A DNA stretch of 64,000 nucleotides from an uncultured Chloroflexia bacterium (GCA_963767035.1 CAVYBW010000001.1:2502547-2566546); one strand, 5' to 3'. Shown: positions 18,798-62,200, counted from the stretch's first letter. Notes: generated by a model not told the origin, from the sequence alone. Numbers and translations are program-made.

Positions 18798-18918
18798 GGG
18801 TTTCGCTCCTTCAATAAACTGTCTAACGGAGGATACTGCGATTATAGATGGCAAACTACGCCATGTCTACCAAAGTTCTGTGCTATCCTGATAGCAAAAT
18901 TGCGATAAGGATAATGGT

Positions 18919-23592: not shown

Positions 23593-25017
23593 ATGGATAG
23601 AGAGTTGGCTCAGGAATTGAGGAATATGTCTGAACAATCACCACTCAGCGAGCGTGAAATTGAGGTTTTGAAGCAACTAGCGCTTGGTGCCAGTAATAAC
23701 GAAATTGCCAATACGCTTGTCATCAGCCCCAACACGGTTAAAGTGCATATCCGCAATATCTACGCGAAGCTTGGGGTGTTATCGCGAGCCGAGGCAACCC
23801 TCGAAGCTGTACGCCGTGGCTTAATTGAAGTTGCTATCAATCCAATTGCAACGCCTGAAGCGGAAATCGTGCAGCCTGAGATCGAGCCAGTTGTTAGCCC
23901 AGTTAAACTTGAGTCAATTGAGCTAAACCCGCTCCCAGACCCAATTAATCTCCAACCTGCAATCACTCCAACCCCTGATCCGATTACCCCAGTCATAACC
24001 CAACCAACCAATCAGATTACGATTCCGCGTGCGTATGCCTTGGCAATTGTGGGCGTGCTGTTTGGGCTAATCGTGGCGGTGTTTGCGATTGGCTGGTTTG
24101 TGGTAAGCGGCAATAATTCCGCAACCAACGAACCTGTCACGACCATGATTGTGAGCAATGTTTGGCAGCCGTTGACTGCATTGCCCCAACCAACCTATCA
24201 ACATGCCGGAGTTTTCGTGGCCGATAGCTTGATTGTGATTGGTGGCAATACTGATACTGGCGTGGTGGCGCATACCCGCCAGTTAAATCTTGCAACTGGC
24301 GCATGGCGCGATCTAGCTGCCAAACCAACCGCTGTGGCCGCCAGCGGAGCAGTGCAGATTGCTGGCCAAATTTATGTTGCTGGGGGCCGCGATAAAAATG
24401 GCGCTGCTAGTGCGACCTTCGAGATTTTTGATTTGGCACAAAATCGTTGGCAAACTGGCCCAGCCATGCCAGCACCTCGGGCCAATGCCATGGTTGCGGC
24501 GATTGATGGCAAAGTCTATGTCTTTGGGGGCGAAGCCGAGAGCGTAATTGCCGATACCAGCTTCATGTATAGCCCCGATACCAAAAGTTGGAGCCAAGGC
24601 GCGAGCCTGCCCTTGCCCTTGCGCGATGCGGCAATAGCCCAAAGTGGCAGCGATATTGTGCTAACTGGCGGCCAAACAACGACTGGCACAAACCTCGGCA
24701 CATGGCGCTTACAAACGGGTACATGGCAAAAGCTGGCCGACCTGCCAGGCCCACGAATTGACGCTGGCGCAGTCTATATTACCAATCAAGTCTATTTGGT
24801 TGGCGGGGCGGAGGGCGATCAACCGATTTTGGTGTTGCAAAACGGCATCTGGAATGCCACTGATTTGCGCACTGGACATGCCATCAGCGAACACCTCGTG
24901 CTATCAAATGCTCGTGATATCTATAGCATTGGTGGGTGGAATGGCACGAATGCGCTCGCTGAAACCCGTAGTTGGACACCAATTACCAATATTTTCTTGC
25001 CGAGTGTTGGCAAGTAG
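23593..25017 (+). CDS. one-component transmembrane regulator: LuxR-type HTH, Pro-rich linker, TM helix, extracytoplasmic Kelch-repeat beta-propeller
   Basis: 'LSEREIEVLKQLALGASNNEIANTLVISPNTVKVHIRNIYAKLGV' is LuxR/FixJ. TM helix 'YALAIVGVLFGLIVAVFAIGWFVV'. Repeated '...GG.....G.......L..G.W' Kelch-like blades ('IYVAGGRDKNG', 'VYVFGGEAES', 'VYLVGGAEG'). The true start may be the ATG at 23626. Confidence 0.65.
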   Translation: MDRELAQELRNMSEQSPLSEREIEVLKQLALGASNNEIANTLVISPNTVKVHIRNIYAKLGVLSRAEATLEAVRRGLIEVAINPIATPEAEIVQPEIEPVVSPVKLESIELNPLPDPINLQPAITPTPDPITPVITQPTNQITIPRAYALAIVGVLFGLIVAVFAIGWFVVSGNNSATNEPVTTMIVSNVWQPLTALPQPTYQHAGVFVADSLIVIGGNTDTGVVAHTRQLNLATGAWRDLAAKPTAVAASGAVQIAGQIYVAGGRDKNGAASATFEIFDLAQNRWQTGPAMPAPRANAMVAAIDGKVYVFGGEAESVIADTSFMYSPDTKSWSQGASLPLPLRDAAIAQSGSDIVLTGGQTTTGTNLGTWRLQTGTWQKLADLPGPRIDAGAVYITNQVYLVGGAEGDQPILVLQNGIWNATDLRTGHAISEHLVLSNARDIYSIGGWNGTNALAETRSWTPITNIFLPSVGK

Positions 25018-39954: not shown

Positions 39955-42003
39955 ATGCAGATCAATTCCCATCCTTCAACCCGACCTAAGCAATCAGTTT
40001 GGCAAACCTATCAGCCAATCTTAACCATTGTGAGTGCAGCGCTGGCCATCCTCTTGGCCCTAATCAGCTTTGGCTTTATGCAGAGTATCGATTGGCTTGC
40101 GACCAACACCCAGCAGATCGTTGGTTTTGGCAGTTTTTTGCTGCTGGTGATATTGATCCCTGGCTGGGCGACCATTCGTTGGCTAACCCCCAAACAATTG
40201 CTAAGCCGCAGTGAACGCTGGGCTTTGAGCTGGTGCGTTGGGATTGCGCTGCCGCCAATTAGCTTGAACTTATTTCATCTTGTTGGGCTATCAATTAATC
40301 GCTGGGTGATCATCGCCTATGCTTTGCTTGGGCTTTTAGGCGCAATCTGGCCGGAACCGCGCTCGACTTGGAACCTGCGGTTCGTGCAACTCAAACAAAT
40401 CCGAATCAGCGGTCATGCTTGGCTCTTATTCAGCATTGCGCTGGTCAGCATCATTCAACGGCTGTTGGCAGTGCGCAATTTAAGCGTGGCCCAATGGAAC
40501 GATGCCTATCATCATACTATTATTACTCAGCTCTTTTTAAATAACGGTGGTATTTTCGAGACTTGGCAACCCTATGCCGATTTAAATACATTTAGCTACC
40601 ATTATGGCTTCCACGCCAATAGTGCCTTTTTGGCTTGGTGGAGCCAGCTCGCCGCCACAACCAGCGTTCTGTATACCGGCCAATTGCTGGGCGTTGCTGC
40701 TGGCGTAATGGCCTATTTGCTAGGCCGACGATTAAGCGGGCGGCCAAGCATAGGCTTGATTGCCTTTGCGCTGACCAGTTTCTACAACTTAATGCCAGCC
40801 TATTATGTTAACTGGAGCCGCTTTACCCAATTAATCGGCCAAGTTATTTTGGTTGGGTTGGTTGTGGTTTGGTTTATCGCCTTGGAATATCCACGCTTTT
40901 CGTGGAAGTTAGTTGGTTTAGCCACGATCCTAACGACCAGCCTGCTGCTCACGCATTATCTTGTGACTCTGTTCGCGGTCGTAATGGTTGGGTTGATCAT
41001 CTTGGCATTATTAGCGCTACGGCCAACATTTGAGAATTTAAAGCAATTGAGCCTACGGGCTGGCGCAATTACAATCGCCAGCGCAATCATCGCCGCGCCA
41101 TGGTTATATACGATTATTCAGAGTAAGCTCACGGCGATTGCCCGCAACTACGTCACTGGCTATAGTTCGGGCTACGCCGCAACGGTTGCCACCCTCGACC
41201 AAATTGTGCCAACCTATATTAAAGGGCCAATTATGCTTTTGGCAGTGATTGGCATTTGGCTAGCATGTGCTCAGCGCTCGTGGCGCATGCTGTTGCTGGT
41301 GGGTTGGAGCCTTGGAATTGAAATTTTGGCAGTGCCGTATGTTTTTAACTTACCAATTAGCGGCATCATTAGTGGCTTCGCTGTTTCGATCATGTTATAC
41401 CTTACAATTATCCCACTCGCTGCCTATCCTTTGGGCCTGCTGCTCGATCGATATAGCCGCCCATGGTATATCAAAGCATTGGCTTTAGCAGGCTTGTATG
41501 GCTTGATTGTTTGGTCTACGCCATGGCAAACCGCAATTGTCAACGAGCAAAATCGTTTATTGACAACTGCCGATGAGCAAGCAATGCAATGGATTCGTGA
41601 AACGACGGAGCCAGATGCCCGCTTTTTAATTAATGGGCTATCGAGCTATGGCGATGCATTAATTATTGCCGATGATGGTGGCATGTGGATTCCATTTCTG
41701 ACTGGTCGCCAAACCACGATTCCACCATTGACCTACGGCTCGGAAAAAGCCATCAATCCACAGCTTGATCGCGAAGTTTATGCGTTGTATGCAGCGTTGC
41801 GTTCAACCGCCTTAGAAAGCGCGGAAGGCATCGCATTGCTTCACAAAAATCAGGTTGATTACATTTATGCTGGCCCGCATATGGGCAAGAATGCCCAAAA
41901 CACTCAGCTTAACATTCAAGCACTCCGCTATCGGCCAGAGCAATTTCCGATTGTCTATGAGCGTGATGGAGTGGTGATCTTTGCAGTAAAGGCGCAACAA
42001 TGA
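39955..42003 (+). CDS. large polytopic membrane protein (about 14 TM plus a C-terminal extracytoplasmic domain); putative GT-C-type glycosyltransferase/polymerase or oligosaccharyltransferase-like component
   Basis: 682 aa with many TM helices and a soluble C-terminal roughly 160-aa domain. It is the first gene of the operon, start/stop-overlapped with the GT4 genes. No diagnostic motif was recognised; the function is inferred from architecture and context. Confidence 0.45.
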   Translation: MQINSHPSTRPKQSVWQTYQPILTIVSAALAILLALISFGFMQSIDWLATNTQQIVGFGSFLLLVILIPGWATIRWLTPKQLLSRSERWALSWCVGIALPPISLNLFHLVGLSINRWVIIAYALLGLLGAIWPEPRSTWNLRFVQLKQIRISGHAWLLFSIALVSIIQRLLAVRNLSVAQWNDAYHHTIITQLFLNNGGIFETWQPYADLNTFSYHYGFHANSAFLAWWSQLAATTSVLYTGQLLGVAAGVMAYLLGRRLSGRPSIGLIAFALTSFYNLMPAYYVNWSRFTQLIGQVILVGLVVVWFIALEYPRFSWKLVGLATILTTSLLLTHYLVTLFAVVMVGLIILALLALRPTFENLKQLSLRAGAITIASAIIAAPWLYTIIQSKLTAIARNYVTGYSSGYAATVATLDQIVPTYIKGPIMLLAVIGIWLACAQRSWRMLLLVGWSLGIEILAVPYVFNLPISGIISGFAVSIMLYLTIIPLAAYPLGLLLDRYSRPWYIKALALAGLYGLIVWSTPWQTAIVNEQNRLLTTADEQAMQWIRETTEPDARFLINGLSSYGDALIIADDGGMWIPFLTGRQTTIPPLTYGSEKAINPQLDREVYALYAALRSTALESAEGIALLHKNQVDYIYAGPHMGKNAQNTQLNIQALRYRPEQFPIVYERDGVVIFAVKAQQ

Positions 42004-43145
42004 AACTCTGTGTGGTTGGACCAACCTATCCCTATCGTGGGGGGATTGCTCATTACACCACGCTTTTGGTCAAACACTTGCGCGAAGTTGGCCATCAGGT
42101 GCGATTTTATTCGTATACCCGCCAATATCCGCGCTGGCTTTTTCCAGGCAAAACCGATAAAGACCCCAGTGCTACGCCATTGCGGGTTGAATGCGAATAT
42201 GTGCTCGACCCAACCAATCCAATTACTTGGTGGCGTTTGTGCCGCAAAATTCGCGCCGATAATCCCGATTTGGTGGTGTTGCAATGGTGGGTTCCCTACT
42301 GGACACCCTCGCTGAGCTATATTTCGCGCTGGCTCAAAAAACACACCAAAGCCAAGATAGTCTATATTTGCCACAATGTTATGCCGCATGATGGCGGTGG
42401 CTTTTTGGATCGGCGCATGGCTTCGACGGTGCTCAAGCAGGGCGATGCCTTGATTGTGCATAGCGACCAAGATTTGCATCGGGCGCAAGCGCTCTTGCCG
42501 CAAGCCGCCGTGCTTAAATCGCAGTTGCCCACCTTTGAAGAAGTGGCCAAACACACCGATGCGGCGGCGATTGAGCGTTTGCGTGCGCACCTTAATATCG
42601 CTACCGATCACGATATTTTGCTGTTTTTTGGCTTTGTACGGCCCTATAAAGGCTTAGAATATTTGATTCAAGCGTTGCCGTTGGTGGTGCAGGAGCGACC
42701 TGTACATTTGCTGGTAGTTGGCGAGTTTTGGGCTTCGCCCGAATTTTATCAGCGCTACACCCGCGAATATGGGGTTGAGGCCAATGTCACCTTTATCAAT
42801 CGCTATGTGCCGAATGAAGAGCTTGGCCCCTATTTCGATGTCGCCGATGTGGTAGTGCTGCCCTATATTTCGGCCACTCAAAGCGCAGTGGTGCAATTGG
42901 CGTTTGGGCTTGGCAAGCCAGTTATCACCACCCGGGTTGGTGGTTTGCACGAAGTTGTGCGCGATGGAGTCAATGGTTTGGTCGTGCCGCCCCAAGATGA
43001 AGTGGCCTTGGCCAAGGCAATTGTGCGCTACTTTAAGGATGAACTCCAAGCTCCGATGACCGCCGCCGTCCAAGCTGAACGCGGCCAACAACTGCATGGC
43101 TGGGAAAATTTGATCAACTGCCTTGAACAAATTGGGGCCAAATAA
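42000..43145 (+). CDS. glycosyltransferase family 4 (GT-B, retaining)
   Basis: 'LPYISATQSAVVQLAFGLGKPVITTRVGGLHEVVRDGVNGLVVPP' is the EX7E-type GT4 C-domain. ATGA overlap with the upstream gene. Confidence 0.8.
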   Translation: MKLCVVGPTYPYRGGIAHYTTLLVKHLREVGHQVRFYSYTRQYPRWLFPGKTDKDPSATPLRVECEYVLDPTNPITWWRLCRKIRADNPDLVVLQWWVPYWTPSLSYISRWLKKHTKAKIVYICHNVMPHDGGGFLDRRMASTVLKQGDALIVHSDQDLHRAQALLPQAAVLKSQLPTFEEVAKHTDAAAIERLRAHLNIATDHDILLFFGFVRPYKGLEYLIQALPLVVQERPVHLLVVGEFWASPEFYQRYTREYGVEANVTFINRYVPNEELGPYFDVADVVVLPYISATQSAVVQLAFGLGKPVITTRVGGLHEVVRDGVNGLVVPPQDEVALAKAIVRYFKDELQAPMTAAVQAERGQQLHGWENLINCLEQIGAK

Positions 43146-44377
43146 TGCGGCGGATTGTCTTTCTGATTACCATGGGCATTGAGCGGCCTTCGGGCCAGCG
43201 CTACTTTAATTTGGCCCGTGAACTGGTGCGCCATGGTGATCAGGTGCGAATTTTGGCGTTACACCCCGATTTAGCCCAATGCCAGCAACGCCGCTTGCGC
43301 CAAGCTGGAGTTGAAATTTGGTATGTTGGCCAAATGCATTCGCGCAAACGCCATGGCGAGGTCTTGCCATTTTCGCCGTTGCAATTGCTGTGGGTCTTAA
43401 TCACTGCCACGTTGGGAATGCTTTGGGCCATTGTTTGCTCGCCTGCTGAGATTTATCATCTTGGCAAGCCGCAACCTGTCAATGGTTTGGCAGCGCTATT
43501 AGGCGTGTTGTTGGGTCGTGGCCAGCGTTTTTGGGTCGATTGCGACGATGATGAAGTTGGCAGCAATCGCCTCACCAACCAAGCCCAGCGCATGGTCTTT
43601 GGCTTTTGGCAATGGCTCTTGCCGCGCTTGGCCAAGGGCGTAACGGTTAATACCCAAGCATTGGCCCAGCGCATGCTTCAAGCGCGAGTGCCCAAAATTG
43701 TCTACGTGCCCAATGGCGTTGATTTAGGGTTGTTCCAAGCACCGGAGCCTGTGATCTTGGCAGGTTTGCGCAGCAGTTTGGGCTTAGATGGTAAAAAAGT
43801 AATCGCCTATGTTGGCACGATTGCCTTGCACAATCACCCAATTAACTTATTGCTCGAAGCCTTCGACCTGCAATTAAAGCATGATCCGCTGATTCGTTTG
43901 CTATTAGTTGGCGGTGGCGAAGATTTGGGTTATGTTCAAAGCTGGATTCGCCAGCATGGCTACCATGATCGAATCAGCTGTTTGGGGCATCAAGATCGGC
44001 GCACGATTCCCATGTGGATGGCGCTTGCCGATGTTACGGTTGACCCCGTGTATGATGATGCGGTGGCCCAAGCCCGCTCGCCCTTGAAGCTGTTTGAAAG
44101 CTTGGCCTTGGGAATTCCCCCCGTCACTGGCGATGTGGGCGATCGTCGGCTTGTGTTGAATTTTGCAGCTGATCGCTTGATCGCTCCTGCTGGCGATGCG
44201 TTGGGTTTGGCTCAAACCTTACAAACGGTGCTGGCAACCTGGAGCGACGCAGATCGCCAAGCCTGCTTTGAACGAGCGGCTGACTATGCGTGGTCGGCGT
44301 TGGCGCTACGTTGGCGAGCAGGCTATGAGGAATATTATGCGCAACATCCGCTTGAACCAAGCCCTGCACATGAGTGA
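43145..44377 (+). CDS. glycosyltransferase family 4
   Basis: 'ARSPLKLFESLALGIPPVTGDVGDRR' C-domain. TAATG overlap with the upstream gene. Confidence 0.75.
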   Translation: MRRIVFLITMGIERPSGQRYFNLARELVRHGDQVRILALHPDLAQCQQRRLRQAGVEIWYVGQMHSRKRHGEVLPFSPLQLLWVLITATLGMLWAIVCSPAEIYHLGKPQPVNGLAALLGVLLGRGQRFWVDCDDDEVGSNRLTNQAQRMVFGFWQWLLPRLAKGVTVNTQALAQRMLQARVPKIVYVPNGVDLGLFQAPEPVILAGLRSSLGLDGKKVIAYVGTIALHNHPINLLLEAFDLQLKHDPLIRLLLVGGGEDLGYVQSWIRQHGYHDRISCLGHQDRRTIPMWMALADVTVDPVYDDAVAQARSPLKLFESLALGIPPVTGDVGDRRLVLNFAADRLIAPAGDALGLAQTLQTVLATWSDADRQACFERAADYAWSALALRWRAGYEEYYAQHPLEPSPAHE

Positions 44378-45657
44378 GCTTAGTAATGATTAAGGATTCC
44401 ACGCCAACCCAAACCAGCGTAGCCGAAACGCAATCATCAGCCAAATTGCCACGCGATCGGCTTTTTCAGATTAGCTTTGGGGTTGGCGGCGTGCTGCTAG
44501 CGCGGCTTTTGGGTATTTTTACCCAAATTATTTTGGCCCGTCGCATGGGCGCTGAGCAATATGGTTTGTTCAACTCACTGTATGCGCTCCTTAACCCGTT
44601 GATTATTCTGGCCAATTTGGGTTTGGATAATTGGTTGCTGCGCCAAAGCTCTGATCGGGTATTGCTGAATAAATCGGTTAGTCGGGTGTTTGCCTTGCGC
44701 GGCTTTGTGCTGGCAGGATTGTTATTAGTCGCTGCGCCGTTTGTGAGCATGCGCAACCCGGCCTTTACGCCGTACCTGATTGCCTTGGCCTGCGCGGGGA
44801 TTATTGGCGATTTGTTGGTTGGCACGGCGGATACCTCCTTGCGGGCCTCGATTCAGGTGCTCAAAGCCTCAAGCCTGCAAATTGTGGTGGCGCTGAGTTT
44901 ATTTGCTCCAATTTGGTTTACGCCAGAATTGCCATTTTCAACCGTGGTAATCTATCGCTGTATTGCGGTATCGCTTGGTTTCGGCCTCAGCGTCTACTAT
45001 TTGCATGGCATTTTGCGCTGGGTTTGGCAGCCGCGCCAATGGATTAATACAATTCGTGAGGCCCGTTTTTACTTCGTTTCCGAGGTAATGGCCTACTTAA
45101 CCTTACGGGTTGATCTGTTTTTGGTGGCCTTGTTGTTACCAACAATCAATTCGGCAATTTATGCACCGCCACTGGCAATCATCAACAACACCTTTTTAGT
45201 GCCCAGCATTACCGCCCAAATTTTGCTGCCCATGATTGTCAAACATCCGCCGCGTTCGCCACTGTATCGGCGGGTCATCAGCTTGGCGATTGGCTTGAGT
45301 TTGCTCTATGGTTTGGCATGGTTGGCAATCCTGAGCTGGCATTCGGATTGGATCATCAATCTGATGTATGGTGCTGAGTATGCCGAGGCCATTCCATTGT
45401 TGCAAATTATGGCGATTATTCCCTTGCTCAAAAGCCTTAATTTTTGCTGGGCCACCTTTATGGTTTCCAATGATCAGCAGCCATTGCGGGTTAAATTGCA
45501 AACCATTGGTGCAACGATTAGCATTCTTGGTAATTTTGTGGTCATTCCATTGTATGGATTGCAGGGCGTGGCGATTATTAATATGATCACCGAAATTGCC
45601 CTGTTTATCTCATATGGCTATGGTGCTTGGCTGACCTATCGGAAGGTAATGCGATGA
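44374..45657 (+). CDS. polysaccharide biosynthesis protein / oligosaccharide flippase (Wzx, MOP superfamily)
   Basis: About 12-14 TM. N-terminal 'LLARLLGIFTQIILARRMGAEQYGLF' is typical of Wzx. GTG start overlapping the upstream stop (GTGA). Confidence 0.7.
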   Translation: MSLVMIKDSTPTQTSVAETQSSAKLPRDRLFQISFGVGGVLLARLLGIFTQIILARRMGAEQYGLFNSLYALLNPLIILANLGLDNWLLRQSSDRVLLNKSVSRVFALRGFVLAGLLLVAAPFVSMRNPAFTPYLIALACAGIIGDLLVGTADTSLRASIQVLKASSLQIVVALSLFAPIWFTPELPFSTVVIYRCIAVSLGFGLSVYYLHGILRWVWQPRQWINTIREARFYFVSEVMAYLTLRVDLFLVALLLPTINSAIYAPPLAIINNTFLVPSITAQILLPMIVKHPPRSPLYRRVISLAIGLSLLYGLAWLAILSWHSDWIINLMYGAEYAEAIPLLQIMAIIPLLKSLNFCWATFMVSNDQQPLRVKLQTIGATISILGNFVVIPLYGLQGVAIINMITEIALFISYGYGAWLTYRKVMR

Positions 45658-46961
45658 AGGTTTTGTTATTAAATGCCCATTCGCCGCAAAATGCTGGCGA
45701 TTTGGCCTTGCTTGAGCAATCGTTGGCCCATTTACAGGCGGCGTTTCCCCACGCCGATCTGAGTTATGTGATTAATCAGCCCGAGCCGCCAGCATGGTTG
45801 CCTGCTGCTGTGCCATATCTTCGTTCGATCCATGAACATAAAACCAATTTGATCAAAGATGCACCCAAACCACGCCGTAAATGGCTGATGATGGGTTTAG
45901 CGATCTGGTTGGTTAGCATCAGCCTGCTCTATCGCTGGACTGGGATCAAACTCAAACCACGGGCAAGCAGTGCTTGGCGCGAATTGCTTGAGCATTATTT
46001 TGAGGCCGATGCTACCGCAGCGATTGGCGGCGGCTATTTGTATGCCACCAAAGCCTTTGATTTAAACTATATTTGGGTTTGGTTGGGAGTTGCATTGCCG
46101 GTGCTGATGGGCAAGCCGTTGGTGTTGTTGCCGCAATCGTTTGGGCCAGTTACGGGCAAAATCAACCAACTGCTCTTGGCGTGGTTGGTCAATCGCTCGG
46201 TGCTGGCCTATGCACGTGAGGAGCGCTCGCAGCAATATCTGTATAGCATCGGGGTCAATCAACCGGTGCATGTTGTACCCGATGTGGCCTTCAATTGCCC
46301 AACCGTCGAGCCAGCGCAGGCCGAGCAGTATCTGGCGCGTTGGTGGCAACCAGCCAAACGCCCAGCCTTGCTAGTTGGCATTACGGCGATGGATTTTGGC
46401 ATTCAGCACCCAGGCTCGGGGTTTAGCCATAGCCAACGCTATGAGCAAGCGCTGCTTGATCTGATTCAGCATATCAGCCAATGTGATGATGTACATATCT
46501 TGTTGTTTGCCCAATGCGTTGGCGCAAGCGAGGCCGAGGATGATCGGGTGGTGGCGCGGCGCTTGATGGCCCAATTGCCAGCTGAAACCCCGATAACCTT
46601 TATTGATGATCGCTTGCAGCCCGCGATGCTCAAGCAATTGTATAGCCAACTTGATCTGCTGATTGCAACCCGTTTACATTCGGCAATTTTTGCCTTGAGC
46701 ACCACCACGCCTAGTTTTGTGATTGGCTATTTGCACAAATCGGCGGGAGTGATGCAGATGCTCGGCTTGGCTGATTATCAAATTCCGATTGAATCGATTG
46801 ATAGTGATAACATTATTCGTGCCTTTGACCAAACTTTAGCCGCGCGCGGCTTGATTAAAACCATGATGCAGAGCGCGATTCCAGCGCTGCAACGCCAACT
46901 TGAGCGCTTGCCAAGCCAAATTCGGGCAGCGGTTGGCGATTGGTTACGAGGAGCAAACTAG
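45654..46961 (+). CDS. polysaccharide pyruvyl transferase family protein (CsaB/WcaK-like)
   Basis: N-terminal 'MKVLLLNAHSPQNAGDLALLEQSL' is the PS_pyruv_trans signature. ATGA overlap with the Wzx stop; RBS 'ggaagg'. Confidence 0.75.
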   Translation: MKVLLLNAHSPQNAGDLALLEQSLAHLQAAFPHADLSYVINQPEPPAWLPAAVPYLRSIHEHKTNLIKDAPKPRRKWLMMGLAIWLVSISLLYRWTGIKLKPRASSAWRELLEHYFEADATAAIGGGYLYATKAFDLNYIWVWLGVALPVLMGKPLVLLPQSFGPVTGKINQLLLAWLVNRSVLAYAREERSQQYLYSIGVNQPVHVVPDVAFNCPTVEPAQAEQYLARWWQPAKRPALLVGITAMDFGIQHPGSGFSHSQRYEQALLDLIQHISQCDDVHILLFAQCVGASEAEDDRVVARRLMAQLPAETPITFIDDRLQPAMLKQLYSQLDLLIATRLHSAIFALSTTTPSFVIGYLHKSAGVMQMLGLADYQIPIESIDSDNIIRAFDQTLAARGLIKTMMQSAIPALQRQLERLPSQIRAAVGDWLRGAN

Positions 46962-46969
46962 CAAACCAT

Positions 46970-48136
46970 ATGGATAAAATAACTGTAGCCCATGTAATTA
47001 CTGGCTTTGCCAGCGCAGAAGGAGCAGGCGGCTCGGCCTTGTTTGGCATCGAAGTTGCGCGTGCGCTCGATAAAAGCCGATTTCGACCCATTTTGTGTGG
47101 CATTCATCGCTTTGATACGCCCTCGGAACAGCGTTGGCTCAAAACCTTGGCCGCTGAAGCGATTGAAACGCGGATAATGGTGCCAGAGCGCAGCAAATTG
47201 CGCTACGATATGGTGCGATTTAGCGCCTTGCTCAATCAACTTGTGCGCGATCAAGCAGTCGATATTATTCATACCCATGTTGAGCGGGTTGAATTTTTTA
47301 TTAGCCTGCAAAAATTGTTAAACCCAAGCTACTACCCCAAATTGGTGCGAACGCTGCATGTTAATTCGATGTGGGTAACGCGGCCAATGGTGCGACGCTT
47401 GATGAATCTTGTCTATACGCAATTGTTTAGTGAAGAAATTGCGATTTCTCAAGCCACCAAAACCATGCTTGATCAGCGCAAGGCAGCCCGTATATTTGGC
47501 CGTTCGGCGACTGTGATTCAAAATAGCCTACCCTTGGCGCGGTTAAAAAATTTCGATTTGCCCAAACAGCACACGCCATTCAACCCACCACGCTTTTTAC
47601 TGATTGGCCGCTTAGAAATTCAAAAAGCCCAAGATATTTTTATTCAAGCGGCGGCGTTGGTGTTGCAACACTACCCACATGCTGAGTTTTGGTTGGCAGG
47701 CGAAGGCATGCAAGAGGCCAATTATCGCCAACTTGCGGCCAATTTAGCGATTGAGCATGCGATTAAATTCCTTGGGCCACGCGGAGATATCCCCGCTGTG
47801 CTCAGTCAGGTTGATGTGTTGGTCTCAACCTCGCGCTGGGAAGGCTTTGCAACCGTTATTTTAGAAGGTATGGCAGCTCGCACGCCGGTAATTGCGACCG
47901 ATATTGGCGGCAACAACGAGCAAGTTGTTGATCGTGAGACCGGGCTTTTGGTTGAGGTGGATAATCCAAGTGCAGTGGCAGAGGCGATGATTTGGATGCT
48001 GGAACACCCAACTGAAACTGCTGTGATGGCCCAGCGAGGCTACGAATGGGGGCAGCAGTTCACTATGGAACGTACTGCTGCCCAGTATGGTGCGATCTAT
48101 GAGCGGCTAATTACGGCGCAAAAATATCGACCTTGA
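46970..48136 (+). CDS. glycosyltransferase family 4
   Basis: 'VLVSTSRWEGFATVILEGMAARTPVIATDIGGNNEQVVDRETGLLV' is the GT4 motif. The ATG at 46970 is preferred over the upstream TTG. Confidence 0.8.
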   Translation: MDKITVAHVITGFASAEGAGGSALFGIEVARALDKSRFRPILCGIHRFDTPSEQRWLKTLAAEAIETRIMVPERSKLRYDMVRFSALLNQLVRDQAVDIIHTHVERVEFFISLQKLLNPSYYPKLVRTLHVNSMWVTRPMVRRLMNLVYTQLFSEEIAISQATKTMLDQRKAARIFGRSATVIQNSLPLARLKNFDLPKQHTPFNPPRFLLIGRLEIQKAQDIFIQAAALVLQHYPHAEFWLAGEGMQEANYRQLAANLAIEHAIKFLGPRGDIPAVLSQVDVLVSTSRWEGFATVILEGMAARTPVIATDIGGNNEQVVDRETGLLVEVDNPSAVAEAMIWMLEHPTETAVMAQRGYEWGQQFTMERTAAQYGAIYERLITAQKYRP

Positions 48137-48632
48137 TTTTACCTAAATCAAGCTTTTGATCAGTAACTGCATCAATGACCAAAGTTACCTGATCAGGGCC
48201 GAGCAAAATCTTATAATTCCCATAGACATCGCCCACAACTACAACATAACGATGGGGTGAAATATTCTCAAACACAAAATCGCCTTGATCATCGGCAACT
48301 GTCACCGGGCTTTGGGCCGTGTTGAGCACAAAATTAGTTTCGCCCTTCTCGTTATCATAGGCTTCAGCTAATTGGACTTGAACTTGGCTATAAGGTTGGT
48401 TGTTGGTAGGGTTACTGACATTGCCAAAGACCGTTGCGCGGCCACTTTCAGGATCTTTAATTTGGCCTAAATCATGATCTTGAACAGCGACAAAAGTCGG
48501 TGTTGCCAAGACTTCAGCCGTTGGTAAGTTACTATTAACCGTCGGTAATGGATTCGATGTAGCCGGCAGACTACTATCGCTACAACCAACCAATGCTCCG
48601 ATCATCAACCCGGTTAGGATTATTTTGCGCAT
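48111..48632 (-). CDS. small secreted lipoprotein with a carboxypeptidase-regulatory/transthyretin-like beta-sandwich
   Basis: 'MRKIILTGLMIGALVGCS' lipobox; 'YVVVVGDVYGNYKI'. Confidence 0.5.
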   Translation of the reverse strand: MRKIILTGLMIGALVGCSDSSLPATSNPLPTVNSNLPTAEVLATPTFVAVQDHDLGQIKDPESGRATVFGNVSNPTNNQPYSQVQVQLAEAYDNEKGETNFVLNTAQSPVTVADDQGDFVFENISPHRYVVVVGDVYGNYKILLGPDQVTLVIDAVTDQKLDLGKIKVDIFAP

Positions 48633-48658
48633 GGAAAGCTACCTCTTATAACACTAAT

Positions 48659-49399
48659 TTAGCGGCGCGTAATATGTAAGCGACTTTTATGCTCAAAGCG
48701 AAATTCGGCTTGGCGGTCGCGGAAGAAATCGTCAACAGCTTGGCGACAACCAGACCAACTAATATAGTCGTCGATCACCAAGATGCCACCTGGCACGAGC
48801 TGGGGCACAATCCGTTCAAGGCAGACCATTACCGAATCATACCAATCGCAATCAATATGGGCCAAGGCGACTGGCTGATCGATTTGCAAACTATCTTCAT
48901 ATAAACCTTTGACAAGGCTCACCTGATGCGCCTCAATCGGGTAACCAGCCTCGGCAAATGCAGCAATCACCTTTTGATCAAGCGACTCTTCGTAGCCATA
49001 GTAACGCCGATCGCCCAGCCCCGCTGATTGACCACTGCTGATCACCTCGTAGCGTTGATGCACATCGTGGCCATCACGTTCTGAGGGTGGCGGAATCATG
49101 CCAAACACATCATAAATTGCAAACGGGCGCTGTTTGGCTTTGACGCTGGTGATGACAATCGCAGAACCTCCAGCAGCACAGCCCAATTCGAGCATTTGGC
49201 CAGCAATTGCGTCTTGTTCAAGCTGACGAACCGCCGACCCAAGATCAATCAAGGCTTGTTGATCAAGGTAGGTTAAGTGCTGCTTTTGAACATACTCGAT
49301 GGCATTTACTAGCTTTGGCTGAACCCGATTGAGCGTCCTCAATTGCCATGTATTGATCACGGTTGGCTTAATGTTCTTCAATGCTGCTTTGATTCCCAA
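48659..49399 (-). CDS. TylF/MycF-family sugar O-methyltransferase (class I SAM-dependent)
   Basis: 'LELGCAAGGSAIV' SAM motif I. 'LAHIDCDWYDSVMVCLERIVPQLVPGGILVIDDY' matches the macrocin-O-methyltransferase family. Confidence 0.7.
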   Translation of the reverse strand: MGIKAALKNIKPTVINTWQLRTLNRVQPKLVNAIEYVQKQHLTYLDQQALIDLGSAVRQLEQDAIAGQMLELGCAAGGSAIVITSVKAKQRPFAIYDVFGMIPPPSERDGHDVHQRYEVISSGQSAGLGDRRYYGYEESLDQKVIAAFAEAGYPIEAHQVSLVKGLYEDSLQIDQPVALAHIDCDWYDSVMVCLERIVPQLVPGGILVIDDYISWSGCRQAVDDFFRDRQAEFRFEHKSRLHITRR

Positions 49400-49485
49400 G
49401 TGTGGCTACTCCTCTGTAATTGATGCTAATTAACCCCTCTAAACAAGGCTAAACCACCTGATTAACCCAAAAGGATTAGTGGATT

Positions 49486-50205
49486 TTAGGCTATTTTACG
49501 GGCGATTAGAGCATAATTTTTGCACATGCCAGCTTCGGTAAACTTATATTGCAAGTCGAGGCGACTAAACAGCAACGATGTAAGCACGAGGATTGGTCGC
49601 AGCAGCAGTGCTGTCAAACTTCCGCCGAAGCCAGCCCAGCCACCGCCATAAAAGCGCGGATTGAGCCGCAAACTGCGCACGGCTAAATCGGCCTGATACG
49701 CTAAGGTGCCGTAATAGCCTTCAAGCCACTGGGTTTGCACAACCTGAAAGCCTGCTAGGGTTAGTTGATGCTTAAACCCAAACTGCGTATAGCGATAGAA
49801 ATCGTAAGGCACTTCGTGTTCTTCATAGAACAAAGGAGCCGAGAGCCAAAGCGTGCCATTCGGCTTGAGCAGCCGCAGCATCTCCTTTAATACCTGCTGA
49901 GGATCGGGCAAATGTTCCAAAACTTGAGTCAGCAAAATCAAATCATAGCGCTCAGATTCAACCGGAACTGCGGCCAGATCACAGACATAGGTCATAGGCG
50001 CATAGGCTTTATCAACCTGACAAAAATCGGCTGATTCATAGTGCACATGGCGAAAAAAACGCTGATATGCCGCATCGCCAGCCCCGGCATCGAGCATCAT
50101 TTGGCCTGGTTGAAGGCTTTGGGCAGCCTGCTGAACAAACTGCTCAAGATAGACCCGCGATGAGTTTTTGGCATAACGACGCAAGATTTTTGGCAAAATT
50201 GCCAT
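49486..50205 (-). CDS. class I SAM-dependent methyltransferase
   Basis: 'MLDAGAGDAAY' motif I; 'LILLTQVLEHLPDP...LKPNGTLWLS' (Methyltransf_11/23-like). Confidence 0.7.
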   Translation of the reverse strand: MAILPKILRRYAKNSSRVYLEQFVQQAAQSLQPGQMMLDAGAGDAAYQRFFRHVHYESADFCQVDKAYAPMTYVCDLAAVPVESERYDLILLTQVLEHLPDPQQVLKEMLRLLKPNGTLWLSAPLFYEEHEVPYDFYRYTQFGFKHQLTLAGFQVVQTQWLEGYYGTLAYQADLAVRSLRLNPRFYGGGWAGFGGSLTALLLRPILVLTSLLFSRLDLQYKFTEAGMCKNYALIARKIA

Positions 50206-50329
50206 AGCAACTTCCTAAAACAATAGTTAACGAACTGCCGCCAAGCATACCATGCTGTTATGTCATCAGCAAACCATGGCAACTCCACAAAAACCAAGGA
50301 ATAATCCCCCGATTAGCCAAGATGGAGTA

Positions 50330-50358
50330 TTGCGCTGAGCCTATGATCTTGTGATACT
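50330..50358 (+). promoter_or_regulatory. candidate sigma70-type promoter for the secreted repeat protein gene
   Basis: 'ttgcgc' -35, 17-nt spacer, 'TGtgatact' extended -10; located about 70 nt upstream of the RBS 'aaaggag'. Confidence 0.3.
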
Positions 50359-50428
50359 ATAGGCAGCATAACAAGGGAATACCTAAAAGCGTTTAGGTAG
50401 ATTAACGGTCTTATAAAGGAGTTCATCA

Positions 50429-51847
50429 ATGACGTTTGCGAAGCTGCGTGTACGGGCAATGATGGTTGCATTGTTGCTTTCAATCTTTGCAGTAGGCGGT
50501 CGGGGCGTATCAGCTCAAACCAATGCCTATGCAACCGCTTTCACCACCTCGATCACCTACCAAAACATTGGTACTGGTCCTGCCAACATTAACTTGACTG
50601 TTTACAGCTCAACTGGTACCCCATCAGCCATTCCATCATCAACCTTGGCTCAAAATGGCGCTGGCTCATACTTCGTTGGCTCAGTAAGCGGCTTGGGAAC
50701 CACCTTCAATGGTTCAGCTGTTATCTCAGCTGATCAACCAATTGCTGCCACCTTGGTCCAAATCCCAGCAGCAGCTTCATCTGTCAAGAACCGCCCATTG
50801 TCAAATGGTTTCACTAGCGGTTCAGATGTTGTGTTGATTCCAACCGTTTTGAAGTCATTTGCTAACTACACCAGCAAATTTGTGATTCAAAACACCGACT
50901 CAGTTGCGAACGACTTTGTCGTGCAATTCATCACCTCAGCTGGTGTTGCTCACACTGTCAATCCAACCAACGTGTTGCCAAATACCTCAGTCTATTATGA
51001 CGCTGGTACGATTGCAGCTCTTACGGGAACCTTCAATGGTTCAGTCAAAGTAACGGCAACCAAAACTGGCACCAGCAACCCTGGTAACGCTGTTGGTACG
51101 GCCCTTGAATTGCAAACCAACGGTGTTGGCGCTTATGCTTCACAAGCATTCCCAGCAAGTGCTGCTGCAACCAAAGTGTTCATGGCAACATCACTTTGTA
51201 ACTTGGTAATTCCAAGTGGTGCAACCACCTCGTTCTATGCTGTGCAAAACGCAGGGACTGCTTCAGCAAGTGTTACCGTTAACTATGTTGGTACTGCTGC
51301 TGGCAGCCCAGTCAACGTAACCTCATCAGCCGTAACGATTGCTGCTGGCGCTAAGGGTAGCTTCAACCCATGTGGTTTGGCACCAAGTGGCTTCAGTGGT
51401 TCAGCAACCATCAACTCAACCCAACCAATCTTGGCGATTGGTAAAGTTAGCGGTGGTGGCTTGTTCACCGCATTCGAAGGTGCAACCGCTGGTAGCGCCA
51501 AGACTGCATTGCCATACGTTCGCTGGTTAGCCCCAGCTCAAGGTGGCCAACAAACCTTCATCGCTATTCAAAATGTTGGTACTGCTGCTGCAACCAACGT
51601 AACCGTCAAGTACTACAGCGGTGCAGGTGCATTGCTCGGTACCCACACCATCCCAAGCATTGCTGCTGGCGCTAAAGCTAGCTCAAACCCAACGTTGGCA
51701 AGCCCAAGTGCTTCAGGCATGGGTGTTGGCGGTGGTTCAGCCGTGGTTGAAGGCGCAGGCGCAACCTTGATCGTGGTTACTCGTGTAACTTCACCTGTTG
51801 GTACAAGCACCACCGGCGAAGACTACAACGGTATTCCTTTCAACTAG
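50429..51847 (+). CDS. abundant-type secreted Thr/Ser/Gly/Ala-rich protein with four ~85-aa internal repeats (candidate surface/sheath/S-layer-like glycoprotein)
   Basis: Signal peptide 'MTFAKLRVRAMMVALLLSIFAVGGRGVSAQ'. Repeats centred on 'ITYQNIGTG', 'FVIQNTDS', 'FYAVQNAGTA', 'FIAIQNVGTA'. Many N-x-S/T sequons. Codon usage (ggt/gct/tca/gtt/caa) resembles rpsT rather than neighbouring genes. Strong RBS and a strong terminator follow. Confidence 0.7.
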   Translation: MTFAKLRVRAMMVALLLSIFAVGGRGVSAQTNAYATAFTTSITYQNIGTGPANINLTVYSSTGTPSAIPSSTLAQNGAGSYFVGSVSGLGTTFNGSAVISADQPIAATLVQIPAAASSVKNRPLSNGFTSGSDVVLIPTVLKSFANYTSKFVIQNTDSVANDFVVQFITSAGVAHTVNPTNVLPNTSVYYDAGTIAALTGTFNGSVKVTATKTGTSNPGNAVGTALELQTNGVGAYASQAFPASAAATKVFMATSLCNLVIPSGATTSFYAVQNAGTASASVTVNYVGTAAGSPVNVTSSAVTIAAGAKGSFNPCGLAPSGFSGSATINSTQPILAIGKVSGGGLFTAFEGATAGSAKTALPYVRWLAPAQGGQQTFIAIQNVGTAAATNVTVKYYSGAGALLGTHTIPSIAAGAKASSNPTLASPSASGMGVGGGSAVVEGAGATLIVVTRVTSPVGTSTTGEDYNGIPFN

Positions 51848-51870
51848 GCTAAACCTTTGGTATTCCCTTG

Positions 51871-51902
51871 GGCCTGCTCCATAATTGGAGCAGGCCTTTT
51901 TT
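51871..51902 (+). terminator. rho-independent terminator
   Basis: 'ggcctgctcc ataatt ggagcaggcc' followed by tttttt. Confidence 0.8.
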
Positions 51903-58698: not shown

Positions 58699-59772
58699 TT
58701 GAGTAAGAAAATTCGAGTAGCCATTATTGGCGTGGGCAACTGCGCCTCGTCACTCGTCCAAGGGATTGAGTTCTACAAAAATGCCAACGAGGGCGACCAT
58801 GTACCAGGCTTGATGCACGTTAATCTTGGTGGGTATCACGTCAGTGATATCGAATTCACCGCTGGCATTGATATTAATATTACCAAGGTCGGCAAGGATT
58901 TATCTGAAGCGATTTTCGCTGAACCCAACAACACCTACAAATTCTCTGAAGTCCCACACTTAAACGTACCAGTCTATCGCGGCATGACCCACGATGGTTT
59001 GGGTAAATATCTTTCGCAAGTGATTGAAAAAGCACCTGGCTCAACCGACGATATTGTTAAAATTCTGCGCGATACCAAAACCGATGTCGTGATCAGCTAT
59101 CTGCCAGTTGGCTCAGAAATGGCCACCAAGTGGTATGTTGAGCAAATTCTCGAAGCTGGCTGCGCCTTCATCAACTGTGTGCCAGTCTTTATTGCCAGCC
59201 AAGACTATTGGCGCAAGCGCTTCGAAGAAAAGAACTTGCCAATTATCGGCGACGATATCAAATCGCAAGTTGGCGCAACCATCGTTCACCGTGTGCTAAC
59301 CAACTTGTTCGAGCAACGTGGCGTGCGTTTGGATCGCACCTATCAATTGAACTTTGGTGGCAACACTGACTTCTACAATATGCTCGAACGCGAACGCTTG
59401 GAATCGAAAAAAATCTCCAAGACCAACGCTGTTACCAGCCAATTGCCCTATGCCTTGCCCGCCGATAGTGTTCACGTTGGCCCAAGCGACTATGTGCCAT
59501 GGTTGACCGACCGCAAGTGGTGCTATATTCGCATGGAAGGCACAACCTTTGGCAACGTGCCATTGAATGCCGAAGTCAAGCTCGAAGTCTGGGATTCGCC
59601 CAACTCGGCTGGCGTGGTAATCGATGCCATTCGCTGTGCCAAATTGGCGCTTGATCGTGGTGTCGGTGGTGCGTTGTATGCACCGTCATCATACTTTATG
59701 AAAACCCCACCTGAACAATACACCGATGACGAAGCTCACCGCCGCACCGAAGCCTTTATCGCTGGCGAATAG
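58699..59772 (+). CDS. ino1: myo-inositol-1-phosphate synthase (bacterial/archaeal short form)
   Basis: '[24 protein letters not shown]' Rossmann N-terminus; '[14 protein letters not shown]'; about 357 aa, typical of the prokaryotic MIPS family. TTG start after 'aaggag'. Confidence 0.8.
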
Positions 59773-59778
59773 CTGAGG

Positions 59779-59933
59779 GAGAACAGAGAGCATAGAGCAT
59801 AGAACAAATTGAGAGTGCAGGGGTCAGGGGCTAGCTATCAGTACGGAGGGTTTGGCCTATTAAACTTCGCTACTGCGAAAGCTGGCTTCCTAGCTCCTAA
59901 TCCCTCTGTTCTATGCTCTCTGTTCTATGCTCT
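59779..59933. repeat. MITE-like element: inverted terminal blocks built from 'catagaac/agagag' units flanking a ~98-bp core
   Basis: Left 'gagaacagagagcatagagcatagaac'; right 'ctctgttctatgctctctgttctatgctct', a reverse-complement composition. It occupies the ino1/acyltransferase intergenic region. Confidence 0.5.
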
Positions 59934-59941
59934 AATTACGT

Positions 59942-60808: not shown

Positions 60809-60886
60809 ATTTCGTGCTACTATTGGGCCGAACCATGCAATTTGCTGATTCGCTGAACAACTAGCATACAAAGGAAGGCCAAGCAC

Positions 60887-61936
60887 ATGGCCACGATGCC
60901 AATGAGTGAAACCTATATTCAACCGAGCGAACCAACGCGCAGCCATCCATGGCGAGTGATTATTCAAATTCCCTGTTTGAATGAAGAGGAAACGCTGCCG
61001 GCAGTGTTGAATGATATTCCCTTGGATTTACCCAATGTGCATTTTGAAACCTTAGTGATTGACGATGGCTCGACTGATCGCACGGTTGAAGTTGCCCGCG
61101 AACTTGGGGTCAACTATATTGTGCGCCATCGTGGTCGCAAAGGCTTGCCAGCCGCCTTTCAATCGGGCATGGATGCGGCGCTGAAGCTCGGCGCTGATAT
61201 CATTGTCAACACCGATGGCGATCATCAATACCCTGGTTCGGCGATTCCAGATTTGATCAAGCCAATTTTAGAGGGCAAGGCCGATATTGTGATTGGCGAC
61301 CGCCAAACCCAAAATGTCGAGCATTTTTCGACCCAAAAGAAATTACTACAACGGGTTGGTAGTTGGGTTGTGCGCGTTGCCTCCGATACCGATGTGCCCG
61401 ATGCGCCCAGTGGTTTTCGCGCCTATTCCAAAGAAGCAGGCTTGCGTTTGTATGTTACCAGCGAATTTTCCTATACGATTGAAAATTTAATTCAGGCTGG
61501 CAAACGGCGGCTGCATGTTGATCATGTGGCGATTACCACCAAGCCAACCCGACCATCGCGCTTGCATCGCGGCAATTTTAATTTTGTTAAGCGCCAAGGT
61601 GCAACGATTATCCGCACCTATGCCCAATATGAACCGCTGAAAACCTTTACCTACTTTGCGCTGCCATTTTTGCTGATCGGCGGCGGCCTGCTGCTACGCT
61701 TTATGATCTACTATTTACTTGATCCCAATCAGACCTATACCCGCTATTTACAATCGGTTTTTATTGGCGGCGTGTTTATGATTGTCGGAATTTTAACCTT
61801 CTTCATTGGCATTTTGGCCGACTTGAGCGGCAACAATCGCCGAATCAACGAAGAAATTCTCTATCGTTTGCGCAACCTTGAAGTTGAGGTTGCCCGCCGC
61901 TCACCGCCCAATGATGGCGAAGAAATCCGCGATTAG
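60887..61936 (+). CDS. GT2 polyprenol-phosphate glycosyltransferase (DPM1/GtrB/ArnC-like) with two C-terminal TM helices
   Basis: 'IIQIPCLNEEETL', 'LVIDDGSTDRT', 'DGDHQY' (DXD), and C-terminal helices 'FALPFLLIGGGLLLRFMIYYLL' and 'FIGGVFMIVGILTFFIGILADL'. Confidence 0.8.
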   Translation: MATMPMSETYIQPSEPTRSHPWRVIIQIPCLNEEETLPAVLNDIPLDLPNVHFETLVIDDGSTDRTVEVARELGVNYIVRHRGRKGLPAAFQSGMDAALKLGADIIVNTDGDHQYPGSAIPDLIKPILEGKADIVIGDRQTQNVEHFSTQKKLLQRVGSWVVRVASDTDVPDAPSGFRAYSKEAGLRLYVTSEFSYTIENLIQAGKRRLHVDHVAITTKPTRPSRLHRGNFNFVKRQGATIIRTYAQYEPLKTFTYFALPFLLIGGGLLLRFMIYYLLDPNQTYTRYLQSVFIGGVFMIVGILTFFIGILADLSGNNRRINEEILYRLRNLEVEVARRSPPNDGEEIRD

Positions 61937-62150
61937 GGGTCAGGGATCAGGTGCTAGGGTTCAGTTTTTGATTCACGAAGGACACGAAGGCCGAAACCGC
62001 GAAGATCACGAAGATCGCGAAGGTTAAGTTTTTAGCCACAGATTCCACAGATTTCTGGATTAGCTACGAGCGATGTCCAACGTGTTGGCTGATCCCTGAC
62101 TGCTGACCTCTTTTCCTCCTTCATCCCTCATCCCTCATCCTTTATCCCTT
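61937..62150. repeat. intergenic short-repeat cluster ('gggatcagg', 'cacgaag' x4, 'catccctcatccctcatcc')
   Basis: Same motif family as 14160-14200, 27601-27690, 35100-35300 and 63940-64000. Confidence 0.6.
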
Positions 62151-62200
62151 TCAGCTTATAATAAGCCCATCGTCCCGCACTTTGTTTTGGGAGGCTTAGA

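Follow-up and report, generated by a model that had tools for sequence, protein, structure and literature searches.

Described systems and the locus

In SLH/CsaB systems (csaAB-sap-eag of Bacillus anthracis; Paenibacillus alvei; Thermus, OmpM), genes for a Wzx-like protein and a pyruvyl transferase adjoin the gene of a major surface protein; in B. anthracis, Mesnage et al. in 2000 are said to have located csaA (Wzx-like) and csaB on the 5' side of sap and eag, the S-layer genes. The archaeal Agl system comprises the oligosaccharyltransferase (OST) AglB, family 4 and family 2 glycosyltransferases (GT4 and GT2), the Wzx-like AglR, and the methyltransferase AglP. Here, we analyzed a stretch of 64,000 nucleotides from an uncultured Chloroflexia bacterium (GCA_963767035.1 CAVYBW010000001.1:2502547-2566546; hereinafter referred to as the window, with positions counted from its first letter), in which a glycan-assembly cluster is encoded together with an abundant type of secreted protein of 472 amino acids (aa) between positions 39,955 and 51,847. 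This Herpetosiphon region is one copy of an envelope module that is conserved across the filamentous Chloroflexota. As a tentative reading, which we prefer while rating it somewhat short of probable, the 472-aa protein binds the glycan non-covalently, as a pyruvylated ligand that has been conserved. The following features were identified in the region.

39955..42003, plus strand: GT-C glycosyltransferase of 682 aa, DUF6541 lineage, with OST-like (AglB/STT3-like) architecture and a C-terminal globular domain (~530-682)
42000..43145, plus strand: GT4a glycosyltransferase (Pfam Glyco_trans_1_4, E 7e-30); an ATGA overlap couples its translation to the GT-C gene
43145..44377, plus strand: GT4b glycosyltransferase (Pfam), TAATG junction
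44374..45657, plus strand: MOP/Wzx-type flippase of 427 aa (Pfam Polysacc_synt, Polysacc_synt_3)
45654..46961, plus strand: polysaccharide pyruvyl transferase (PF04230, 136 bits), ATGA overlap
46970..48136, plus strand: GT4c glycosyltransferase (Pfam Glycos_transf_1, E 2e-36), likely start ATG at 46970
48111..48632, minus strand: lipoprotein of 173 aa with lipobox LVGC, a Pro/Thr/Ser-rich linker, and a CarboxypepD_reg-like β-sandwich (weak Pfam match)
48659..49399, minus strand: TylF/MycF-type sugar O-methyltransferase (PF05711, E 1e-22, 81 bits)
49486..50205, minus strand: class I S-adenosylmethionine-dependent methyltransferase with a hydrophobic C-terminus (Pfam Methyltransf_23, Methyltransf_11)
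50206..50428: divergent intergenic region 5' of the 472-aa gene, with a strong ribosome-binding site (AAAGGAG) and promoter-like matches
50429..51847, plus strand: Sec-secreted 472-aa protein with four homologous TM1070/ASRT-like (CARDB-like) β-sandwich domains
51870..51897, plus strand: intrinsic terminator behind the 472-aa gene (stem of 12 bp, 8 of them GC pairs, then a T-run)

The locus shared several traits with SLH/CsaB systems: the adjacency of Wzx-like and pyruvyl transferase genes to the gene of a major surface protein, the retention of this pairing over a long evolutionary distance, and a partner protein made of repeated modules with a (pseudo-)oligomeric binding architecture. In contrast to SLH proteins, the 472-aa protein carried four TM1070/ASRT-like β-sandwiches, and its single domains matched neither SLH nor PF07100 (ASRT) when compared with Pfam at E ≤ 10; the undivided protein likewise gave no SLH match. 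The pyruvyl transferase was WcaK-like and CsaB-like in NCBIfam and fell under both equivalog cutoffs (74 vs 213 bits for CsaB), and the cluster differed further in encoding an OST-like GT-C protein and a dedicated lipoprotein. By analogy, the cluster would functionally resemble SLH proteins on a CsaB-pyruvylated wall polymer, with unrelated protein parts. A phylum-wide survey found that SLH and CsaB were lost in Chloroflexi; a PS_pyruv_trans gene was nonetheless conserved in the Chloroflexota cluster, beside a non-SLH partner.

As in the Agl system, genes for GT4 enzymes, a MOP flippase, and methyltransferases were clustered by the gene of an abundant surface protein, and the fold of the 682-aa protein was nearest to AglB, C-terminal globular domain included. 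Unlike AglB, this bacterial protein had no Pfam STT3 match, possessed extra N-terminal helices, and showed the WWDYG motif reduced to DGG[W/M]W. The candidate acceptor lacked sequon enrichment, and pyruvylation is predicted, which also set the locus apart from Agl. Compared with ArnT/PMT/GtrC enzymes, which work with GtrB/Ppm1, the C-terminal domain of the 682-aa protein was AglB-like and not ArnT-like or PMT-like, and the operon contained no GT2 gene. Because the operon encodes Wzx and three GT4 enzymes, an oligosaccharide donor is suggested, unlike in those systems.

Organization of the gene cluster

All ten open reading frames (ORFs) listed in the first-pass annotation, which had been made from the sequence alone, were recovered with the coordinates, overlaps, and families it gave. 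The chaining of the plus-strand genes was visible in the DNA as ATGA (42000), TAATG (43145), GTGA (44374), and ATGA (45654) overlaps. For the pyruvyl transferase, the mechanical ORF opened at TTG 45627, and the likely true start was ATG 45654. Pfam bore out the labels of three GT4 enzymes (E range 1e-16 to 1e-36), a PS_pyruv_trans protein, and a flippase, the last with a marginal score (29.8 bits against a cutoff of 28.2 for Polysacc_synt; 22.7 against 23 for Polysacc_synt_3). Both minus-strand methyltransferases were likewise found (TylF, class I), whereas the lipoprotein gene (48111-48632), a third gene on that strand, had been overlooked. These Pfam families supported the view that the cluster would make an oligosaccharide with pyruvyl and O-methyl groups by a Wzx-type route. 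In agreement with the first-pass annotation, no priming phosphoglycosyltransferase (Bac_transf or Glycos_transf_4) was found in the window by Pfam or in the annotation of the syntenic locus L001.

The NCBIfam models nearest to GT4a were MshA and GlcN-PG synthase, with scores far under their cutoffs, and no protein of the glycan locus was assigned to a curated NCBIfam equivalog. The 682-aa, 472-aa, and 173-aa proteins had no Pfam or NCBIfam family beyond weak matches to DUF6798, CARDB, and CarboxypepD_reg, respectively. The GC content of the locus was the same as that of the remainder of the window, and its flanks were housekeeping genes (ABC-F and biotin ligase upstream, class IV aminotransferase downstream). 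The convergent GT4c and lipoprotein genes shared 26 bp at their 3' ends (48111-48136), and no terminator-like structure was present between them.

Conservation across Chloroflexota

The locus proteins were 83-100% identical to Herpetosiphon proteins, and the arrangement, including the 472-aa gene, was unchanged in other Herpetosiphon genomes and metagenomic contigs; this comparison was anchored on a Herpetosiphon homolog 83% identical to the 682-aa protein. A wider scan with one genome per species yielded 80 loci from all classes of filamentous Chloroflexota. Profiles of the window proteins were searched against six-frame ORFs in the flanks, and the 37 loci that had 9 kb or more of flanking DNA on each side were treated as full loci. 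The linkage to the 472-aa protein, the loss of which in relatives would have spoken against a joint system, was kept phylum-wide, including Litorilinea. The components were distributed over the full loci as follows.

GT4c glycosyltransferase: 37/37
Pyruvyl transferase: 36/37, median distance to the 472-aa gene 2.2 kb
Wzx: 36/37
GT4a glycosyltransferase: 25/37
GT4b glycosyltransferase: 22/37
TylF-type methyltransferase: 22/37
DUF6541: 18/37 within 10 kb, at a median distance of 6.9 kb and thus often near the ends of the retrieved sequence

Wzx, the pyruvyl transferase, and GT4c thus formed a near-universal core, and GT4a/b, methyltransferases, GT2, sulfatase, and Wzt varied with lineage. Wzt, sulfatase, and M23 peptidase were further recurrent accessory families among the 80 loci; no priming transferase, LCP ligase, Wzy, or chain-length regulator was found among the recurrent families. 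Many Anaerolineae had the order DUF6541-GT4-(GT4)-Wzx-pyruvyl transferase-GT4-lipoprotein / 472-aa gene-(TylF)-GerE/Kelch. In the distant Chloroflexia bacterium SDU3-3, the 472-aa protein (E 1e-13) and the lipoprotein (E 4e-8) each had a homolog encoded in a DUF6541 cluster.

DUF6541 genes also occurred apart from the 472-aa gene, for instance beside a Wzm/Wzt ATP-binding cassette (ABC) transporter or with two GT4 genes alone. In locus L004 (6435-13465), a 44%-identical DUF6541 homolog was found in a Wzm/Wzt (Wzt_C) ABC-transporter cluster with a methyltransferase and large GT2/GT4 fusions, which indicates that the enzyme family is not tied to Wzx pathways. In some Anaerolineaceae genomes (L019, L029, L030; ~1-3400), two tandem DUF6541 paralogs headed the cluster.

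The 472-aa secreted protein

The description of this protein as secreted, rich in Thr, Ser, and Gly, and composed of four repeats held: it carried a Sec signal peptide, its composition was A 15.5, T 12.3, G 11.7, and S 11.0% (Ser and Thr together 23%), and the four repeats were mutually homologous (hhalign probability 81-98%). Charged residues were very scarce; there were 18 basic residues, six of them invariant. In the family alignment, a Q-N pair was invariant in all four repeats, as were two Cys. The whole chain was modeled with a predicted TM-score (pTM) of 0.86, and in fold comparison of the structure model each repeat resembled the TM1070/ASRT β-sandwich. The family has no Pfam model; the only partial match was that of the fourth domain to CARDB (24.2 bits vs a cutoff of 22.7). 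A search of PDB sequences with the family profile gave no ASRT, TM1070, or other relevant match.

TM1070 and ASRT are tetramers and predicted sugar binders, and their homologs occur as dyads or tetrads (De Souza, Iyer, Aravind; PMC2739507). The 472-aa protein, as modeled, would be a single-chain tetrad and fits this dyad/tetrad rule of the ASRT-homology (ASRAH) superfamily (PMC2739507). Secreted ASRT-homology tetrads fused to an amidase are typical of Roseiflexus, Chloroflexus, and Herpetosiphon (PMC2739507); in contrast, the 472-aa protein stands alone, without an amidase domain. It also differs from TM1070 and Anabaena ASRT in that the SHEshChhN signature is replaced by the invariant Q-N. 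Given the sugar-binding-type fold of the repeats, non-covalent glycan binding is at least as likely as covalent glycosylation of this protein.

The family comprised 2788 representatives (50%-identity clusters) at E ≤ 1e-3 and 380 at E ≤ 1e-30. Its length was almost constant (~456-506 aa), and identity was ~45% between Herpetosiphon, Anaerolineae, Caldilineae, Ardenticatenia, Roseiflexus, and Chloroflexus. No paper discussing the family was found in the literature searched. The eight sequons noted in the first-pass annotation were present, but their value as evidence for N-glycosylation did not hold up, as sequons were not enriched family-wide (5.7 observed vs 5.5 expected) and one site alone was conserved.

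Three rare fusions in the family (P0320, P0343, P0282) contained, one each, a weakly matching GH25-like region, CarboxypepD_reg domains, and EGF-like repeats; the CarboxypepD_reg domain of one fusion is of the same type as that of the partner lipoprotein. In some Anaerolineaceae genomes (L022, L025, L031), a second copy of the 472-aa gene was present with no glycan genes nearby. Homologs were also found on short contigs in bins labeled Pelotomaculum, Methanomethylicaceae archaeon, and Melioribacter (L068; P0147, P0162, P0150), which most likely reflect binning contamination by Chloroflexota and not horizontal transfer.

Several signals pointed to abundant production. The effective number of codons of the 472-aa gene (35.3) was the lowest among 43 window genes, and its GC content at third codon positions was distinct. 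The window contained no ribosomal protein gene, and the codon usage of its elongation factor G gene was like that of bulk genes. The 472-aa gene had its strong ribosome-binding site and its own strong terminator; the promoter matches upstream were consensus hits that did not exceed shuffle expectation. In a proteome of the CsCl surface-appendage fraction of Litorilinea aerophila (PMC13319060, supplementary file 2), the ortholog A0A540VDF2 (47% identical) was, of 1272 proteins, the second most abundant in copy number and the third in weight; it goes undiscussed in the main text of that paper (PMC13319060). The Litorilinea ortholog was surrounded by genes for methyltransferases, a GT4, a pyruvyl transferase, Wzx, two further GT4 enzymes, and a GT2, and the contig stopped 361 bp upstream of it, where the lipoprotein gene would be expected. 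An adjoining 175-aa gene, considered as the lipoprotein counterpart, was rejected for lack of homology to the 173-aa lipoprotein. Given the abundance of this one ortholog, we regard the 472-aa protein as a putative signature component, and an abundant one, of the envelope in filamentous Chloroflexota.

The lipoprotein partner

The lipoprotein adjoined the 472-aa gene in 37/37 full loci, with a median gap of 104 bp. Throughout the family, the lipobox was universal and was followed by a Pro/Thr/Ser/Ala-rich linker of ~20-100 residues and a conserved CarboxypepD_reg-like β-sandwich. Because of this lipobox-linker-β-sandwich architecture, the protein is a putative membrane tether. In Caldilineae (L015, L043, L051, L061), the lipoprotein and DUF6541 were encoded in one operon, divergent from the 472-aa gene.

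The 682-aa GT-C protein

The AlphaFold model of the 682-aa protein (predicted local distance difference test 91.2, pTM 0.93) contained many transmembrane (TM) helices and, starting near residue 530, an α/β domain. Fold comparison identified a GT-C fold in which the C-terminal globular domain resembled that of AglB/STT3, and the structure model and fold search thereby bore out the earlier characterization as a GT-C-like multi-TM protein with a C-terminal soluble domain. The first-pass annotation had left a choice between an OST and a Wzy-like polymerase; the fold and C-terminal domain spoke for the OST-like option, and the Wzy-type identity was rejected on fold, as no Wzy, WaaL, or SEDS structure was among the matches.

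Comparison with profile libraries, a check proposed in the same annotation, gave no match to Pfam STT3 at E ≤ 0.01 but did provide a link to a DUF family. No direct match to PF20176 (DUF6541) was obtained at E ≤ 0.01, the only hit being a sub-threshold DUF6798 fragment; homologs with 32-47% identity (E down to 1e-164) carried PF20176, one of them together with PMT_2. The protein is tentatively assigned to DUF6541 because of these homologs, by transitive homology. No paper on DUF6541 was found in the literature searched.

Few residues were invariant in an alignment of 58 sequences. In the membrane part, these were D183 and H187 (consensus WGDSYHHT), both of the first external loop; as D183 comes after a TM helix, it is presumably the catalytic Asp of this loop. 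In the C-terminal domain, they were D574, G576, and W578. The full-length profile matched the PDB weakly at DPY19 (E 0.005) and AglB-S2 3vu0 (E 0.39) and at nothing else. In a profile alignment to 3vu0 (E 0.079), D574 and G576 fell on the D and G of WWDYG; this alignment set 'A..W[IV]R.NTP.DA' against AglB 'ALNWMKEN' and 'G.DGGWW.P' over 'SWWDYGNW'. The canonical motif was not retained: the family consensus was G-x-D-G-G-W-W, the 682-aa protein read DDGGMW, and both motif Trp were absent. From the modeled fold, we conclude that the 682-aa protein belongs to the GT-C type and is OST-like though deeply diverged, with a putative transfer activity.

A model of the module and its alternatives

In the model that we prefer, with pyruvylated glycan bound non-covalently, the cytoplasmic GT4 enzymes would, judging from their families, assemble a short oligosaccharide on polyprenyl-phosphate, with the priming enzyme encoded elsewhere. 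By the same token, the pyruvyl transferase would add a pyruvate ketal, the TylF-type and class I methyltransferases would add O-methyl groups, and the MOP/Wzx protein would flip the product over the membrane. The DUF6541 GT-C protein, with its diverged WWDYG motif, would then transfer the glycan outside the membrane to an envelope acceptor. This acceptor would most plausibly be a protein, the best candidate being the Pro/Thr-rich linker of the lipoprotein. The 472-aa tetrad, of which the fold, abundance, and linkage were observed, may bind the pyruvylated glycan, and protein and glycan together could form a protein-glycan surface layer.

Decorative glycans usually diversify fast between lineages. 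A near-invariant core with variable outer genes and a conserved 472-aa protein is therefore easier to reconcile with a ligand and its receptor, both conserved, than with decoration, and core conservation, the tetrameric sugar-binding-type fold, and the csaA-csaB parallel together lead us to prefer non-covalent binding. The fusion of the tetrad to a GH25-like (muramidase-like) wall hydrolase, which is rare and matches Pfam weakly, was also counted in its favor, as were the phylum-wide linkage, the signs of abundance, the invariant Q-N pair and basic residues, the OST-like fold of the 682-aa protein, and the Caldilineae operon of lipoprotein and DUF6541. It is doubtful, though conceivable, that the 472-aa tetrad with its pyruvylated glycan is the Chloroflexota replacement for SLH/CsaB, in which STT3-like loading would lead to a lipoprotein-displayed glycan and the multivalent lectin-glycan lattice would be the outer or proteinaceous layer seen on filamentous Chloroflexota by cryo-electron tomography (cryo-ET).

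Several points weigh against non-covalent binding as formulated here. The link of the 472-aa repeats to ASRT/TM1070 is structural alone. The sequon N203-G-S was kept in 82% of the 472-aa family, all other sites being variable, and an OST-like enzyme next to an abundant secreted protein is also expected under direct glycosylation. DUF6541 was the least tightly linked component and had paralogs in other glycan clusters. To our knowledge, STT3-like enzymes are N-glycosylating and are not known to O-glycosylate Pro/Thr linkers. A GtrB-like GT2 abutting DUF6541 (L053, L079) points to single-sugar transfer. In Roseiflexus castenholzii, cryo-ET showed no separate outer layer, although a Roseiflexus genome (L038) carries the cluster.

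Direct glycosylation, by which the OST-like DUF6541 protein would move the flipped oligosaccharide en bloc onto the 472-aa protein to give an S-layer-type glycoprotein comparable to those of archaeal Agl systems, was the first option of the first-pass annotation; it is the main rival and in our view rather unlikely. The proximity of the fold and C-terminal domain to AglB/STT3, the retained D and G of WWDYG, and the weak profile match to DPY19, another peptide-modifying GT-C, are all consistent with it, as are the presence of Wzx without Wzy or a chain-length regulator, the Ser + Thr content of the acceptor with its conserved N203-G-S, and the conserved linkage of the two genes. The two Trp of WWDYG read the +2 Ser/Thr of a sequon, and both are gone here; sequons were present at the expected number, with variable sites apart from N203. 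The pyruvyl transferase/Wzx/GT4c core was near-universal, whereas decorative glycans usually vary, the repeats had a sugar-binding-type fold, and the linkage of DUF6541 was the loosest; these points weigh against direct glycosylation.

A further possibility, which we regard as improbable, is that the product is a wall polymer or lipoglycan, attached to peptidoglycan or a lipid by an unlinked ligase. DUF6541 would then, like ArnT, GtrC, and Aft enzymes, add one sugar at a time, with a GtrB-like GT2 supplying the polyprenyl-phosphate donor, and the 472-aa protein would be co-located as another envelope component that does not specifically recognize the glycan. In its favor, Juergens et al. in the late 1980s reportedly found O-methyl sugars in a heteropolysaccharide bound to the peptidoglycan of Chloroflexus and Herpetosiphon. 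A GtrB-like GT2, which ends in two TM helices, recurred in 24 loci and abutted DUF6541 in two of them (L053, L079). Its homolog in the window (60887-61936) adjoined inositol-phosphate synthase and PatA-like acyltransferase genes, and a DUF6541 homolog occurred in a Wzm/Wzt cluster, where an oligosaccharide flipped en bloc would be unexpected. The Herpetosiphon operon, however, had no GT2, the AglB-like C-terminal domain is foreign to ArnT and Aft enzymes, and an adjacency kept in 37/37 loci of a phylum would be surprising unless the 472-aa protein, the lipoprotein, and the glycan genes were directly linked in function.

That the 682-aa protein is a Wzy-like polymerase for a repeat-unit surface polysaccharide, an idea suggested by its many TM helices and by a Wzx cluster without an annotated Wzy, is highly improbable in view of the OST-type C-terminal domain, the homolog in an ABC-transporter-dependent cluster that needs no Wzy, and the lack of a chain-length regulator or export component in the cluster.

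Other genes in the window

Two genes outside the cluster may be associated with it.

23593..25017, plus strand: possible associated regulator with LuxR/GerE helix-turn-helix, TM, and Kelch regions
60887..61936, plus strand: possible accessory enzyme, GtrB/Ppm1-like GT2 of the polyprenyl-phosphate sugar synthase type with two C-terminal TM helices (Pfam, TM prediction)

The regulator was of the one-component transmembrane type: a Pro/Thr linker and a single TM helix connect the LuxR/GerE helix-turn-helix to a Kelch propeller outside the cytoplasm. This gene was unlinked here, lying ~15 kb upstream of the operon start and ~25 kb from the 472-aa gene. The GerE-TM-Kelch family recurred in 23/80 loci, directly adjoining the cluster in many and lying beside DUF6541 in L005 (SDU3-3) and L006.

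The GT2, a homolog of the one recurring inside the cluster of other genomes, was part of a row of four plus-strand genes (58699-62974) for inositol-1-phosphate synthase, a PatA-like (Lip_A_acyltrans) acyltransferase, the GT2, and a HAD hydrolase. These genes look like a phosphatidylinositol-glycolipid or polyprenyl-phosphate-sugar pathway. At the window edge (5-2249, plus strand), a CBM2 cellulose-binding domain (ORF from base 5, perhaps incomplete) preceded a GH8 glycoside hydrolase; the two form a secreted pair for polysaccharide degradation and have no relation to the glycan cluster. An LppM-like protein adjoined a 620-aa protein with an InhA-like MAM domain at 17922-20781, and the neighboring 355-aa ORF (16740-17807) had no Pfam family.

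Significance for the Chloroflexota envelope

The individual parts of the cluster (GT-C, Wzx, pyruvyl transferase, and lectin-like β-sandwich) are known in kind, and no description of this gene cluster was found in the literature searched. Cryo-ET papers on Chloroflexota report layered, even diderm-like envelopes; they distinguish outer and intermediate layers as well as lattice-like proteinaceous ones and describe the composition of these as unknown. Chloroflexota lack Bam, lipopolysaccharide, OmpM, and SLH, and filamentous members lack outer-membrane genes. The 472-aa family, the lipoprotein, and the pyruvylated-glycan pathway are concrete candidates for the composition of the outer envelope layers, and the cluster makes this open question directly testable. 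If the reading is true, a function would be assigned to DUF6541: it would be a relative of STT3/AglB found in bacteria, far diverged and changed in its acceptor motif. Many flocs in wastewater plants and digesters are dominated by Anaerolineae and Caldilineae, and given this dominance, a surface module common to both could play a part in bulking and in the adhesion of filaments.

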